Origin: Aeropyrum sp.
GTDB taxonomy: Archaea; Thermoproteota; Thermoprotei_A; Sulfolobales; Acidilobaceae
Assembly (NCBI GenBank): GCA_015523465.1
Contig: WAKF01000023.1
Location: 6,184 to 70,183 of the forward strand
DNA length: 64,000 bases
Direction of reading: 5' to 3'
Below, piece after piece: positions 9,987-61,421 of this stretch. The position numbers were made by a program, and so were the translations under genes. The notes beneath the pieces were generated by a model. The model searched no databases and had not been told where the DNA came from. It saw only the letters and a program-made list of their open reading frames with translations. The first letter of the stretch is position 1; each line of letters opens with the position of its first letter.

Positions 9987-11460
9987 CACTACTTATTCTA
10001 AGTTAAATCATATTGATCCTTGAGCATAGCCGTATGCATGGAAGGTTGGTTTAGCTTTTTATGACTTACAACCATGCGTAAGATACTATCTCCTCGCTTG
10101 TTATCATATCTTTCTTATCATGTAGTGTTGTGTTTTAACAATTAACCTAAATGTCCACTTGACATTTTATAAACGTTTGTCTTAGCTGGAGACATGATGC
10201 TCTTAGTGTTGGAGGCTTTAGCGTGTCAACAGCGATAAACAATCAATTTAACTTATTATATAATATTATATTATAATCATAATATAGATATGTTAACATA
10301 ACATGATTAATGCTCACAAGATTAAGACTCGTCCTTACTCGCTCCACTACCTTCAATTTATCTCTATTTCTAACAGTTTTAATATTTATACGCCACACAT
10401 TATACCTTATCGCTCACCATTATCATTTAAATGATGCTGACATTGTTAGTCCGTGATGGAGGTAGCTATCATGGCTGTTTCATATGCTGATAAGCTGAGA
10501 ATACTGGCGTCCGCTATATTGTATTATATTATTATATATCTTTATATTTATTTAGGCTCTATTTTAGCGCTCAAGCTCGGGCCACCGCTTATCTCGAACC
10601 CAGTTTTCACGTTCATTTATATAGTCGCTGCCATTATATTATTCCTTCTCACTGCTTACATAATTCACCGATATGTCGGTGTATGCAGTGAAGCAGGGTT
10701 TATACGGTGTCTCGGGCTTACTACTAATGGTTTTCTTGAAAGTCTAGTCTTTTCTTCAGCTATTATAACCCTTGCCGCTGTAGTGCTTGGGATAGCCTCC
10801 TATATCCTCAATGGTACTAACCCCTTTAACGAGGCTGTTAAAGCTACCATTAGGTATGCGTATTATTCGTCGCCGGAGTGGTTTAACAGTGTACCTTTAC
10901 GCCTTTTACCAGTAGTATCCCTTCTAGTCTGGTTTCTTGCAGGGATCATGTGGTTCACGTTTATCCAGGCCTTCCCTCTTAACCTCTTATCGCGTAGCTT
11001 TGGCCCATCATCTATTCCTCTAGTTTCATTATCATTTATATTATTATATGGAGCGCCTTTACTGACTGGTAATATAAAACTTGATGATATATTATTTCTT
11101 GGAATTACATATACATTAATACTGTATAAATATAATAATTCGTTAGGTCTAATAACGTGTTATGTATTGTTATATGAAATGCCTGTTAGGGCATCATTTC
11201 TAGTAGGATGGGGTTTAAATGCTTTAAAAGTAGTGATACTACTTCAGCTCTCGTGGGGTATCACATCAATCGTATTCTCACTATATATTATTATAAACAA
11301 TATCATACATGCCGGGCGAGACCTCGAAAATCGTGAGGGTAATTAATTATCTAAATTGTAATAATATCAATCATTTATTCCCGCTAACATGTAGAAAGTG
11401 AACCCTGCTAATGAATCTACTATTTTAGCCTTCCTGTCCTTCCAACGTTATACTAGGCAC
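9987..11460. other. AT-rich genomic islet immediately 3' of tRNA-Gly
   Basis: Abrupt shift to AT-rich sequence after the tRNA CCA; contains one gene with ATA/TTA/TAT-rich codons. Confidence 0.7.
10453..11346 (+). CDS. Polytopic membrane protein, CPBP/Abi (CAAX protease)-like architecture with catalytic motifs absent
   Basis: About 8-9 hydrophobic segments; C-terminal half has CPBP-like spacing (GIMWFTFIQAF / SLSFILLY / YKYNNSLGLITCYVLLYE). Confidence 0.65.
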   Translation: MMEVAIMAVSYADKLRILASAILYYIIIYLYIYLGSILALKLGPPLISNPVFTFIYIVAAIILFLLTAYIIHRYVGVCSEAGFIRCLGLTTNGFLESLVFSSAIITLAAVVLGIASYILNGTNPFNEAVKATIRYAYYSSPEWFNSVPLRLLPVVSLLVWFLAGIMWFTFIQAFPLNLLSRSFGPSSIPLVSLSFILLYGAPLLTGNIKLDDILFLGITYTLILYKYNNSLGLITCYVLLYEMPVRASFLVGWGLNALKVVILLQLSWGITSIVFSLYIIINNIIHAGRDLENREGN

Positions 11461-21905: not shown

Positions 21906-24221
21906 CTAGTGGGCCTTGCCAAGCCTCTCTATAACTAATTCAGCTATCATCCTGGGCCCTGCATAGAGCTTCATTTCCTCATTTATAATTTTATAAGCTT
22001 CGTTTCTAAACCCTTTAACCGCCATGTCTACAGCCTTAAGCGCTAGACAGTCTATATAACTAGCCTTACCATCAGCACAGAGCCTAGAAGCTTCGCTTCT
22101 ATATCTCTCGTAGCCGTTCATATCACCCTTAAGCAAGTTTATAAAGGCGGCCGCTATGAACGTCGAACCCTTATAAGCCCCTAGAACCATGTTAGACATA
22201 GTCTCTCTAAGCTGTCTTTCAGCCCTTTCAAGATCTCCCTTATAAAGATAGTAGAATGTGAGGCTTAGAGACGCCATGTTAATAGCGGGCTTCAGCCCCA
22301 GCTTCTTTGAAGCCTCTATGACAGGCTTAGCTTTTTGAGGTACTAAGTCGATCTCCCCTCGAAGTCTGATGTCCTCCGTAGTAGCCGCCTCCGTAAGAAT
22401 ATAGGCTTCAACGTCGTCAGTCTCTATAACATGCTTTCTAAGCTCGTTATACAGGCTCTTAGCCTTAGCATCCATACCTATGAAATATAAAGCGATCCCA
22501 ACATTAGCTATTATGTGTATCGCTAAGGGCCTCTTCCACTTCTTAGGAAGGCTCTGAAATTCTCTGTAAACCTCCAAAGCCTCCTTGGCGCCCTCGAAGT
22601 TACCCCGAAAAGCTTCGAAAGCGCATTTTATAGCGCTGAGTTTAACGTATATAGGCTTGTCTTTCCTCTTAAAGAAGTCTATCGGCTCCTTGATATTCTC
22701 TATGAAGTGCTTAGCATCCCCGTCGAGGGCGAGCTTCATGGTAACTAGCTCGGCTTTCAGCATCATGAAGTCCCTAAGGGAGGTCCTACACCTTAAAGCC
22801 GAGTCTATAGATGCTATGTACCTGGGAGGGTTATAGAAGGGCCATGTAAGGGTGTAGAGGAAGCGGTTTCTAATGGCTTTGGAGAGAACGTCTAAAATGC
22901 ATTCTCGAGATGCTAACTCGAAGCCTCTAAACTTAGCTATAAACTCCTTAGAGTTTAGTAGGGCTTGTGAAAGCCTTCTAGCATAAGCCTCTCTCTTCTC
23001 GGGGCTTAAATTCCTAGAATACCTAATCAGGATGCCCCGAGGCGATACATACTCGCCCCTTATGTCAGCTAGTCCATAGTATGAAAGTCTCTTCAACGCC
23101 CTCCTACATTCGGTCCCTGCAATTCTACACGGTACACGGCTAGGTACGGGAGCCTTCGCTATAGAAAGCACTTCAGCTAACCTCACATAGTCTTGAGGCA
23201 TTGATGCAAGTATGCCCTCGAGGTAAGCTTGCAACGCTGAGTCCGAGGCGTCTAAGAGGGGCATCCCCCTCCTCAAGTTCTCTGCGATCAGTTTTCCCAG
23301 CCCAGGTATCCCACCCCACCTCCTATAAACCTCTACTATCTTCGAGTCATCAGTTACTCCGTGCGACTTCATGAGGCTAGTGAAAGATTCTAAGTCGAGA
23401 GGGCCCAGCCTGAGTTCGGCTACTTTCCCCGGCATCCTGGAAACCTCTTCAAACCGTTCTCTCGAAATTATGAAGATCTTAGCACTCTCTATCGCCTCAG
23501 CTATTCCAAATATGAGAGACTTTAGATCCCGGCCTGCAAGGTGTATGTCGTCTATGATCAGCGTTAAACCTGTAGCCTCTATACCCCTAGCTAGGACCTC
23601 GGCTATACTTGACCCCCAATCGCCTCCAACACCTTCTTTATACCCTAATGCTGCCAGCACTAATCCCAGTTTTGTCGAGAAAGCAGATGCTGTGGTATCA
23701 TCACTAACGCTATACCAATAAGCAGGTAAACCGTTGTTACGGATAAAATGCGATACTAAATGCGATTTTCCTATCCCGGGAGGACCATAAACATGTATAA
23801 TAGGCTTGGAAGCCTCGCGAAAGAACTTAAGCTCATTACCCCTACCTACTAAGGGCCCATAGCGCGGTGGCTCGAACACGCTACTCACTTTGAACCTTAA
23901 GCTCTCTCCGCCTCCCAGCTCTACTTCAGCCCCGCCCTCGCTAAAAGAGACCTTGAACGACCTTACAGCTAGCTCGTAAACTTTTACGTTTTTATCCCCG
24001 ACCCTAAGCCAGGTTCCTTTAACCAAACCTGCATCGCTAAGCCTACTCAGCCTCCTCGCGATATCTGTTTCATCTCTCCCTAGAACTCTAGATAACTCTC
24101 TAACATAGCTAGGCTTAACTGAAAGTATGGAAAGTATTTTAAGATTGACCTCGTTGGCTAGTAGCTTCATAACCTCAGATACCTTACTACCTCGCCCCAC
24201 CGACGGCATACTCACCGCCAC
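21906..24221 (-). CDS. ArsR-type wHTH + STAND NTPase + helical-repeat transcriptional regulator
   Basis: N-terminal wHTH; hhGR (LVGRGNE); Walker A GPPGIGKS; Walker B LIIDDIH; GxP (WGGIPG); helical C-terminus. Probable start ATG 24209 with SD GGTGA. Confidence 0.82.
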   Translation of the reverse strand: MAVSMPSVGRGSKVSEVMKLLANEVNLKILSILSVKPSYVRELSRVLGRDETDIARRLSRLSDAGLVKGTWLRVGDKNVKVYELAVRSFKVSFSEGGAEVELGGGESLRFKVSSVFEPPRYGPLVGRGNELKFFREASKPIIHVYGPPGIGKSHLVSHFIRNNGLPAYWYSVSDDTTASAFSTKLGLVLAALGYKEGVGGDWGSSIAEVLARGIEATGLTLIIDDIHLAGRDLKSLIFGIAEAIESAKIFIISRERFEEVSRMPGKVAELRLGPLDLESFTSLMKSHGVTDDSKIVEVYRRWGGIPGLGKLIAENLRRGMPLLDASDSALQAYLEGILASMPQDYVRLAEVLSIAKAPVPSRVPCRIAGTECRRALKRLSYYGLADIRGEYVSPRGILIRYSRNLSPEKREAYARRLSQALLNSKEFIAKFRGFELASRECILDVLSKAIRNRFLYTLTWPFYNPPRYIASIDSALRCRTSLRDFMMLKAELVTMKLALDGDAKHFIENIKEPIDFFKRKDKPIYVKLSAIKCAFEAFRGNFEGAKEALEVYREFQSLPKKWKRPLAIHIIANVGIALYFIGMDAKAKSLYNELRKHVIETDDVEAYILTEAATTEDIRLRGEIDLVPQKAKPVIEASKKLGLKPAINMASLSLTFYYLYKGDLERAERQLRETMSNMVLGAYKGSTFIAAAFINLLKGDMNGYERYRSEASRLCADGKASYIDCLALKAVDMAVKGFRNEAYKIINEEMKLYAGPRMIAELVIERLGKAH

Positions 24222-24236
24222 CGCGACGGGCCTAGA

Positions 24237-24293
24237 GGGACTAGAAAGCTTCAGGCAGCCCTTGTGAGGACTAGCCTGAAGCCCTCCAGTCCC
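24237..24293 (-). other. Long RNA hairpin (26 bp stem, CACA tetraloop)
   Basis: Minus strand GGGACTGGAGGGCTTCAGGC-T-AGTCCT-CACA-AGGGCT-GCCTGAAGCTTTCTAGTCCC; all four non-Watson-Crick pairs are G-U on this strand. Confidence 0.8.
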
Positions 24294-24387
24294 ATTCCCT
24301 CTTTTAGTTCATAGTTAAACTTATTAAGTCTTTTAATAACGCTAGGCTACAGCTTATCAAAACACCGTTAACATTACATAATAACGA

Positions 24388-25263
24388 TTACCTTCTTTCA
24401 CGCTTATTCCTAGAATTCCGAGTCTGATACATCCTATCCTTAGCGCACTCTATCTCTTCATCTAACGCGTTATTGAGGTAGCGAGTGTAGTTGCAGGGTA
24501 GGGGCATTCTTGGCTCTGTAAATGAGTAGGACCTAGGCCTTGATTGCTGCGATTCACGTCTCACTATCCTTAGCAATAACGGGGCTCCAACAAATAGCGT
24601 AATGAACGTTAACACGCCACCTACTCCCATGTAAAATACTTTCGAACCCGTTAGACCCTCCTTAACAGGGGTCTCATAAGTTATAACGCTTCTCTCACTA
24701 TCGAATACCACGTTCTCAGCATTATTAGGTAGCTTAATCTCCACTATTTCTATACCACCACCTTCTTTACCGCGTGAAGCATATGTTAGAGCAGCCGAAT
24801 CCTCTCTGAGAAGTACTGTAGAGGTTAAAGGAGGGCCTAGGGTACTAAGCTCGTTAAGCTGGATCTCCCATTTGCCTTCACCCCAGTATCTGGCAAAACC
24901 GGGAATACTATACTCTAGAATAATAGTGTTCTGCGCCTTATCAACATCTATTTTGAATCCCTCTAAGCTAGTACGATTTAAATTTGGTTTTAACGCCTCT
25001 ATAACTTCAAGGGGGGAGATACTAGACGTCTCTAACAATGACATGATAGTCGAATTTATGCTTAACTCCTCTCTTACATATGCAGTTCCGTTCTCGTCCA
25101 CCAGAACCTTAGCTACGCCCTCAACCCTGGCTTCTTTAAGGCTCTCAGGTACCGGGGAAATGGCATAAACTTCATATGCTTGACCGAAAATAATAAAAAC
25201 CGTCGTTATTAATGCCAGAATAGCGAGTAACCTCCCCCCCATACCGCTAAGCCCCTCCGCCAC
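24388..25263 (-). CDS. Hypothetical single-pass membrane protein with extracellular domain
   Basis: Signal peptide (RLLAILALITTVFIIFGQAYEVYA), about 180-aa ectodomain, TM helix, basic cytoplasmic tail. Confidence 0.75.
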   Translation of the reverse strand: MAEGLSGMGGRLLAILALITTVFIIFGQAYEVYAISPVPESLKEARVEGVAKVLVDENGTAYVREELSINSTIMSLLETSSISPLEVIEALKPNLNRTSLEGFKIDVDKAQNTIILEYSIPGFARYWGEGKWEIQLNELSTLGPPLTSTVLLREDSAALTYASRGKEGGGIEIVEIKLPNNAENVVFDSERSVITYETPVKEGLTGSKVFYMGVGGVLTFITLFVGAPLLLRIVRRESQQSRPRSYSFTEPRMPLPCNYTRYLNNALDEEIECAKDRMYQTRNSRNKRERR

Positions 25264-31690: not shown

Positions 31691-32167
31691 ATGCTAAGTA
31701 GAAACTGGAAGCTCGTCTACGACTACATATGGGACCTCGTAGATGCCGGTAAAGTTTACCTAGCTGCTGTTGATAGCTGCAAGCCTGGGATAGTGTACTG
31801 GGGGTCTGAGGGAGACTTTAGGTGGTGTGATGTCAACCCGCGCTGGGATACCCTATACTCTAAAGACCCTTGGAGGCTGGAGGTCCTTGTCCGAGCCCTG
31901 GAAAAGGACTTAAAAGAGGCGTGGACTGTGTTTGGCTTAATAGCGTCTTACGTGGAGGTGAAGGCATATAGAGTGGCTTTGTCTAGAGCCTCTAAGGCTA
32001 GCGGTGTAAAGGTCCTACACCTAGGCCCTCCAAAGCCCACACCGCTGAGCCTCTCGTCTAGAGTCAACAGGGCTAGGCTTAGGAGGGCTTTGATAGAGCT
32101 TACCGGAGCCTCTGCCAGCTACGAGCCGCCGCCGCCCAGGGTGGGAAGGCCTCTACCAAGGGGCTAG
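31691..32167 (+). CDS. Hypothetical protein
   Basis: ORF-track frame; ATG at 31691 avoids the overlap with the PEBP gene. Confidence 0.55.
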   Translation: MLSRNWKLVYDYIWDLVDAGKVYLAAVDSCKPGIVYWGSEGDFRWCDVNPRWDTLYSKDPWRLEVLVRALEKDLKEAWTVFGLIASYVEVKAYRVALSRASKASGVKVLHLGPPKPTPLSLSSRVNRARLRRALIELTGASASYEPPPPRVGRPLPRG

Positions 32168-34200: not shown

Positions 34201-34643
34201 CTATCGGTTATCCTAACACCCCTGTAAGCGTTGACCACTGCAACTTTAGCTTCCATTAGTGCCTCAACCATTAGCTTAGGATTGCCTGCGTGGAGGTGTA
34301 TTGTAGCGTCGTTAATAAAGAGAGCTGGGAGAGGAGAATATATGTAAGACAGTAGAGCTTTGCTCGTCAGGCGCGAGTTGTGGAGCGCTAGTCTCCAGGC
34401 GCTTCTACAATCTCCCCCAGACTCTAGCCTAGGAGCCCTTAGGCCCCGGGGCCTCACGTACCTAGAGCCCGGCGGAGGCTGCATGGGGGTTCCAACACCG
34501 GCTGTCGCAGGGGCAAAGTCTAAAATGGCGATTGAAGCCGGCCCTGCTACGCCAGCTAAAAGCTTAGCAATTATGGATGTAAGCCTAGTCTTGCCCCTAC
34601 CAGTCTCCCCTACTACAAGCACCCTAACGCTTGAGCTTGACAA
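34125..34643 (-). CDS. Uncharacterised small P-loop NTPase within the ECF operon
   Basis: VLVVGETGRGKT Walker A, ILDFAP, LFIND; overlaps both neighbours. Confidence 0.7.
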   Translation of the reverse strand: MSSSSVRVLVVGETGRGKTRLTSIIAKLLAGVAGPASIAILDFAPATAGVGTPMQPPPGSRYVRPRGLRAPRLESGGDCRSAWRLALHNSRLTSKALLSYIYSPLPALFINDATIHLHAGNPKLMVEALMEAKVAVVNAYRGVRITDRCGISERERWALKTIEGVFNEVWEL

Positions 34644-61240: not shown

Positions 61241-61421
61241 ATCCCACACCCCGGACCCCTACCGGGATCCAGGCCCGGGGATAGACCGGTCTGTAAGAGC
61301 TATTAAACGCTAACCAGCCTTAACTTCTTCGACCGGCCACTTTAGGAGAGCTACTCTCAGATGAAGTCTACGGTCCTCCCCTACTATATTAGAGTGCCCG
61401 CCTTAAACACTCTTATGACGG

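Follow-up and report, generated by a model that had tools for sequence, protein, structure and literature searches.

The spacer between two minus-strand genes of an uncultured archaeon, assembled from hydrothermal-vent metagenomes, holds a long stem-loop, and the question that this locus raises is whether the element works as RNA, as a DNA site or not at all and, if as RNA, on which transcript. Cis-acting mRNA structures are, to our knowledge, few in archaea, with almost none in heat-loving lineages, most of whose mRNAs are leaderless. The window, that is, the whole 64-kb stretch of DNA that was analysed, belongs to a genome of about 50% GC whose tRNA-Gly reaches 72% GC, which points to a (hyper)thermophile, and in such a host a stable hairpin therefore requires a long helix. 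The hairpin is placed within the 178-nt spacer that separates the two genes, in the following arrangement:

24388 to 25263, minus strand: gene of a predicted membrane protein of 291 aa without a family (Pfam, NCBIfam and PADLOC scans, homolog search)
24311 to 24328, minus strand: promoter-like block CTTAATAAGTTTAACTAT, a BRE/TATA candidate, with 17 of 18 positions identical in the relative L015
24237 to 24293, minus strand: RNA hairpin of 57 nt (ViennaRNA folds, sliding-window rank, pairing-preserving counterpart at positions 884-938 of L015)
24210 to 24236, minus strand: spacer of 27 nt from the hairpin to the ATG at 24209 (sequence, comparison with L015, public gene calls)
21906 to 24209, minus strand: gene of a regulator of 767 aa (Pfam, NCBIfam and PADLOC scans, match to PDB 6mfv)

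The regulator combines an N-terminal ArsR-type winged helix-turn-helix (wHTH) domain, an AAA_16 STAND NTPase and a C-terminal helical/TPR-like sensor, its closest solved relative being the TPR-sensor STAND protein PH0952 (PDB 6mfv, E = 6e-17), which upholds the STAND-type assignment made in an earlier note on this DNA. Only 5 relatives were found among 5.8 billion proteins. Weak matches of the wHTH domain, all below family cut-offs, were also obtained with the Phr heat-shock regulator and with CRISPR-associated regulators of the Csa3/CasR type; the generic fold of wHTH domains is the probable reason. The regulator N-terminus has a third, more divergent form (starting MVHEGREVRV and matching 24106-24179) in one vent metagenome, on a 151-nt contig (run X3) that is too short to reach the upstream region. 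The 291-aa gene lies upstream of the hairpin on the same strand, with its stop codon 95 nt 5' of it; the protein has no Pfam, NCBIfam or PADLOC family and no homolog except itself in the 5.8 billion proteins, and a search with it for further syntenic loci returned none. A partial copy of its gene is present in L015. No other plausible ORF runs across the hairpin, and the wider neighbours are housekeeping genes, namely those of the tRNA-splicing endonuclease EndA, a HAD phosphatase, MtnA and isocitrate dehydrogenase (IDH).

Structure, strand bias and copy number of the hairpin

Read from 24293 to 24237, the minus strand is GGGACUGGAGGGCUUCAGGC-U-AGUCCU-CACA-AGGGCU-GCCUGAAGCUUUCUAGUCCC, and ViennaRNA folds it into an uninterrupted stem of 20 bp, a bulge of one U and a second stem of 6 bp capped by a CACA tetraloop, the parts being located as follows:

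24293 to 24274, minus strand: 5' arm
24273, minus strand: bulged U
24272 to 24257, minus strand: apical 6-bp stem with the CACA loop
24256 to 24237, minus strand: 3' arm

The 26 pairs comprise 22 of Watson-Crick type and four G-U (7-51, 10-48, 11-47 and 24-35), without a single mismatch, and folding of both strands thus confirmed the geometry that the earlier note had described. The element is far beyond chance. In a sense-strand stretch of 77 nt, which includes short flanks, the folding energy is -51.3 kcal/mol (z = -7.7), a stability reached by 0 of 200 shuffles, against -36.6 kcal/mol (z = -4.0) for the plus strand of the same stretch. The hairpin ranks first among 18,266 sliding 70-nt windows covering both strands of the whole 64 kb, scoring -47.3 against -37.7 for the runner-up, with a mean of -14.2 and a standard deviation of 5.5, and a repeat scan returned it as the clearest inverted repeat of stem-loop type with separate arms. 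The bias towards the gene-sense strand amounts to about 14 kcal/mol at 37 °C (-46.1 vs -32.3 kcal/mol, sense vs antisense, for the hairpin itself), and it is still predicted at 85 °C (-11.9 vs -5.1 kcal/mol). On further heating the helix is predicted to lose stability, with -12 kcal/mol at 85 °C, about -5 at 95 °C and 0 at 105 °C, energy parameters extrapolated to 95 °C being unreliable.

The second and fourth most stable 70-nt folds in the window (32019-32088 and 34413-34482, minus strand) sit in two same-strand intergenic stretches, 31818-32152 and 34201-34623, which hold no ORF of at least 110 aa and have no Rfam match; they may represent unannotated RNAs, short genes or genes in decay. As to the hairpin itself, the X4 short-read assembly of one metagenome stops exactly at both of its ends (24238-24300), as expected for a long inverted repeat, so that metagenome assemblies may contain too few elements of this sort.

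The 64-kb window contains one copy of the arm sequence, and an unfiltered search of it with a covariance model gave nothing else above 14 bits. The copy check was extended to six metagenomes containing this genome (two of them at about 27x), whose contigs were aligned to the region at a likeness of at least 80%; matches were limited to the genome's own contigs and to the L015-type relative, with no contig matching the hairpin alone. The arm pattern gave nine single-arm bacterial matches and no archaeal one in 185,579 GTDB representative genomes, where about nine are estimated by chance, the hairpin core gave one unrelated high-GC bacterial contig in the JGI metagenomes, and viral contigs, phage records and plasmid records held no hairpin match. 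Moreover, the 20-nt flanks on the two sides have no k-mer of 4 or more in common, that is, they carry no target-site duplication, and neither a transposase nor a RAYT gene is found among the neighbours (EndA, HAD phosphatase, MtnA, IDH). The element was accordingly rejected as a MITE, a REP or an IS200/IS605-end repeat, being single-copy in 64 kb and free of a flanking direct repeat; dispersed MITE copies, which the earlier note had named as what would speak against its reading, were thus sought with a negative outcome in the window and in the metagenomes.

Known RNA families and signals were also considered. At the gathering thresholds of Rfam 15 a tRNA is the sole pass in the window, and at E <= 10 the matches are shape-driven ones to miRNA precursors, with 15-20 bits against thresholds of 60-100. 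The region 23900-24700 has no terminator-like site, and there is neither a T5 run nor any T-run after the stem, by which an intrinsic terminator or a hairpin-plus-T-run attenuator is ruled out. No C box was found on either strand in 24150-24400; together with the continuous stem, which has no internal pocket, and with the lack of an Rfam match, this eliminates a C/D or H/ACA guide RNA, in agreement with the earlier note. A bulge-helix-bulge substrate of EndA, which consists of two 3-nt bulges and a 4-bp helix, was likewise discarded, since the window hairpin has a single 1-nt bulge.

Comparison with the relative L015

The contig L015 carries one of the 5 relatives of the regulator, 81% identical at the protein level and in the same gene order as in the window, and its hairpin occupies the same site (884-938) inside an otherwise diverged spacer. 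In the MAFFT alignment, identity is 41%, with many indels, from the stop codon to the promoter-like block and 58% from this block to the hairpin; plain MAFFT misaligns the hairpin arms, and the pair-by-pair comparison was therefore taken from the two minimum-free-energy structures. The L015 hairpin shows the same strand bias, at -45.0 vs -30.4 kcal/mol (sense vs antisense) with flanks and -41.3 vs -28.0 kcal/mol at 37 °C, and with a covariance model of the window hairpin L015 reaches 31.5 bits in the sense and 18.3 bits in the antisense orientation.

Eighteen pairs of the lower stem are common to both hairpins. The four substitutions in the stem are all one-sided transitions that swap a Watson-Crick pair and a G-U pair (window/L015: U-A/U-G, G-U/G-C, G-U/G-C and U-A/U-G), L015 lacks two whole base pairs of the window hairpin, at mirror positions of both arms, the bulge has moved, and disruptive changes are absent. 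The 5' arm is almost invariant in sequence. The apical part is not conserved, the 6 bp and CACA of the window corresponding in L015 to a 2x2 internal loop, 3 bp and AUUU, and the irregularities of the L015 hairpin are a 1-nt bulge and this internal loop. Each sequence carries four G-U pairs, one of which is common, which makes seven independent wobbles in total, each of them on the sense strand; with the strand left to chance, this would have a probability of about 0.008, and transversion mismatches number zero. A strain variant from another vent study differs in the hairpin solely by a 1-nt deletion at the loop edge.

Four transitions between Watson-Crick and G-U pairs, two mirrored pair deletions and no disruptive change are the behaviour of a structured RNA under purifying selection, observed over few events, in two independent sequences and one strain variant with a loop deletion. 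Selection on sense-strand pairing is thus supported by two independent sequences with no double compensatory substitution, and the proposal of the earlier note that selection acts on the minus-strand RNA structure rather than on a DNA palindrome held up, since all non-Watson-Crick pairs are G-U and the stem differences keep pairing. Regulator homologs at about 30% identity (loci L016, L019 and L020) have no comparable hairpin upstream, from which it follows that the element is young and lineage-specific and is not tied to the gene family.

Promoter-like block and translation start

The conserved block between the 291-aa gene and the hairpin contains GTTTAAC at 24320-24314 (minus strand), and boxes of the TTTAA[ACG] type stand upstream of several genes of the window. 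At two of these genes, whose first in-frame starts are at 10453 and 36509 and which are apparently leaderless, the distance from the box to the start codon is 26-27 nt. In the window, the TTTAA at 24319 is 26 nt from the first paired base of the hairpin, the corresponding distance in L015 being 27 nt, and the box spacing at the two apparently leaderless genes therefore places the transcription start at 24293, which is the first paired G and comes directly after a U. Applied to L015, this spacing leads to A884, a base that there takes part in an extra basal A-U pair. It is from conservation and spacing alone that we infer both the promoter identity of 24311-24328 and the position of the start, a count of the short motif STTTAAS being too unspecific to prove a promoter. 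No TATA-like sequence is present in the 27 nt, rich in GC, that separate the hairpin from the ATG. As for the TATA-like motif that, in the earlier note, would start transcription close to the 5' side of the hairpin, TTATTAAA does occur, at 24332-24339, but it is not conserved, L015 reading TATTGAAC, and the conserved block is the one at 24311-24328. A promoter close upstream of the hairpin is plausible, and this makes a structured leader the best of the readings that had been offered for the element.

Ahead of the ORF for ribosomal protein S6e, a TATA-like GTTTAAT (61301-61307) is followed, before the ORF begins, by another GC-rich hairpin (61250-61290, minus strand). This hairpin favours the sense strand (-40, vs -27 antisense) but exceeds shuffles only weakly (z = -2.1), and it may be a second leader structure; its weak excess over shuffles means that no genome-wide class of TATA box, hairpin and ORF is established.

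The stem is directly followed by CUCUAGGCCC, and the spacer holds a conserved CCGYCGCGGTGGC at 24229-24217 (minus strand; consensus CCGYCGCGGUGGC), which includes an SD-like GGUGG at 24222-24218. Public gene calls start the regulator at the ATG 24209. An in-frame GTG at 24221, found in the window and L015 alike, is an alternative start, and the true start may be this GUG, 15 nt past the helix, instead of the ATG. The regulator frame is open through the hairpin, with no ATG, GTG or TTG before the GTG at 24221, and the candidate start codons lie 15-27 nt downstream of the helix. A further hairpin downstream, which touches the AUG in the window, was set aside as weaker and not conserved in L015. 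The possibility of an RNA thermometer hiding the start site was also dismissed, as the helix ends at 24237 and both the GGUGG (24222-24218) and the starts (24221 and 24209) are outside it. Two of the functions put forward in the earlier note consequently fell away, the thermometer because the SD-like GGUG and both candidate start codons are outside the helix, and the attenuator because no T-run follows the hairpin.

The proposed leader element and its alternatives

With a probability of roughly one half, the HTH-STAND-TPR regulator is translated from a leadered mRNA whose 5' end is formed by the hairpin, a stem-loop that acts in cis. The BRE/TATA-like block at 24311-24328 would direct transcription from a start at or within about 2 nt of 24293, and the transcript would begin with the 26-bp helix, followed by 15-27 single-stranded nucleotides carrying the SD-like GGUGG and the start codon, in a structured leader of about 85 nt. 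At 85 °C the helix is predicted to be still folded (about -12 kcal/mol), and this 26-bp stem of a hyperthermophile would therefore be the functional equal of an ordinary mesophile hairpin. The helix could shield the 5' end from 5'-end-dependent decay, for instance by 5'->3' exonucleases of the archaeal aCPSF2/RNase J type, or it could set a fixed ribosome access for a regulator needed in small amounts; a conserved helix, a free loop and a start region outside the structure fit a stem-loop of either kind. That the element is some cis-acting RNA leader is judged slightly better than an even chance, while the protective role at the 5' end, as one part of this reading, is held only tentatively. 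In Sulfolobus, more than 69% of transcripts are leaderless (cited in PMC3849170), and a long structured leader is therefore a marked exception.

A leader function beyond passive protection of the 5' end appears unlikely. In one form of it, the winged-helix domain of the regulator itself would bind the helix as a double-stranded RNA ligand, by which the STAND sensor would be post-transcriptionally autoregulated; in another, the helix would be tuned to open near 95-100 °C.

The readings that dispense with a leader element, or give it another role, are weighed here in the order DNA operator, small RNA, 3' end element, thermometer or attenuator, and mobile relic, from the more to the less probable. 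An operator, though itself improbable, heads this order: a 57-bp imperfect palindrome reaching from the predicted transcription start to +57 would be bound by a dimeric or oligomeric protein that blocks RNA polymerase, and the binder could be the regulator's own wHTH, as autoregulation. [quoted passage not shown] G-T wobbles are, moreover, tolerated by a single-stranded DNA hairpin of the same strand as well, which counts against the RNA reading. Nevertheless, the seven independent imperfections are without exception G-U pairs of the sense strand, with no C-A or transversion among them, arm spacing and apical sequence differ between the relatives, the loss of whole pairs from both arms alters the register of the half-sites, and arms of 26 bp far exceed known wHTH half-sites. 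Archaeal operators that overlap the transcription start (those of Phr, MDR1 and the TrmB type) share with the present element the position immediately downstream of the TATA box, the dyad symmetry and the neighbouring wHTH gene, but not the 26-bp arms, the one-strand wobble imperfections or the variable centre. A low probability is given to a small RNA that would be either cut out of the leader or transcribed on its own as a short species, and that would act in trans or as the ligand of an RNA-binding protein. It would have its own conserved promoter-like block, with the hairpin at the predicted 5' end, and a helix conserved over a variable loop would suit it; against it, no oligo-T termination signal separates the hairpin from the ORF, there is neither an Rfam family nor a second promoter for the ORF, and a fully paired helix offers no single-stranded seed for target pairing.

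The other readings are doubtful to a growing degree. The hairpin follows the 291-aa gene on the same strand in both genomes, and as a 3' end element of that gene's mRNA it could protect the message from 3'->5' degradation by the exosome or define where the transcript ends, which is rated very unlikely because it comes 95-113 nt past the stop codon, beyond a conserved promoter-like block, and is not followed by a T-run, a T4 tract at 24362, nearer the stop, being the better termination candidate. A temperature- or ligand-responsive switch, be it a thermometer or an attenuator, controlling translation of the regulator or read-through, is regarded as more doubtful still. Predicted stability does drop near plausible growth temperatures (-12 at 85 °C, 0 at 105 °C), yet these values depend on energy parameters whose extrapolation to 95 °C is unreliable, the SD-like GGUG and the candidate start codons stand clear of the helix, the weaker hairpin further downstream, which touches the AUG, has no conserved counterpart in L015, and no T-run follows. 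RNA thermometers of the ROSE and fourU types resemble the element in being leader hairpins whose predicted stability falls steeply near growth temperature, and they differ in their defining feature, the occlusion of SD/AUG by a labile helix, which is absent here. Least probable of all is a relic of a mobile element (MITE, IS200/IS605-type or REP-type) or a functionless quasi-palindrome, to which the long inverted repeat and the break of one metagenome's short-read assembly would correspond. This stands against a single copy in the window, by sequence and by covariance model, no extra contigs in six metagenomes, and absence, chance matches aside, from GTDB representatives, JGI metagenomes, viral contigs, phages and plasmids, as well as flanks without a direct repeat, housekeeping neighbours, and an orthologous site at which pairing has been maintained in the diverged L015.

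The closest parallels of the proposed leader stem-loop are bacterial. 5'-terminal hairpins stabilise bacterial mRNAs (PMC3997798), and the leaders of E. coli ompA and papA and of B. subtilis aprE resemble the present one in a stem-loop, here predicted, within a few nucleotides of the 5' end, in the single-stranded ribosome-binding stretch that follows, in a helix that matters over the loop sequence, and in acting in cis. They differ in that decay in the archaeal host would proceed by aCPSF2/RNase J-type enzymes instead of RNase E/RppH, in that the present helix, at 26 bp, much exceeds theirs in length, as high temperature would lead one to expect, and in that its 5' end is deduced from sequence. 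In Crenarchaea such as Sulfolobus, a 5'->3' exonuclease, aCPSF2, is present and 5' ends are guarded by aIF2-gamma (PMC3792030). Among hyperthermophilic archaea, long GC-rich 5' UTRs have been described in Pyrococcus abyssi, and, in a thermophile, a leader that exceeds 50 nt and is locally rich in GC has been taken as a sign of a cis-regulatory RNA (PMC3849170). The leader predicted here shares both traits; unlike the P. abyssi UTRs, which RNA-seq revealed and which stand mostly in front of genes for ribosomal proteins or biosynthesis, it precedes a STAND regulator and was recognised by sequence comparison.

Most likely, then, the element is an orphan cis-acting leader stem-loop and not a new kind of system. 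It constitutes a clean, testable candidate, being strand-specific, conserved in its pairing and located at the expected transcript start before a signal-sensing regulator, and we know of no 5' stabiliser hairpin that has been experimentally demonstrated in archaea. Were the double-stranded RNA ligand or the opening at 95-100 °C true, a new kind of archaeal leader control would be at hand. If the stem-loop neither protects the 5' end nor tunes translation, it would be one orphan leader structure in an uncultured organism; if it does either, the bacterial principle of the 5' stem-loop would extend to archaeal RNA decay.
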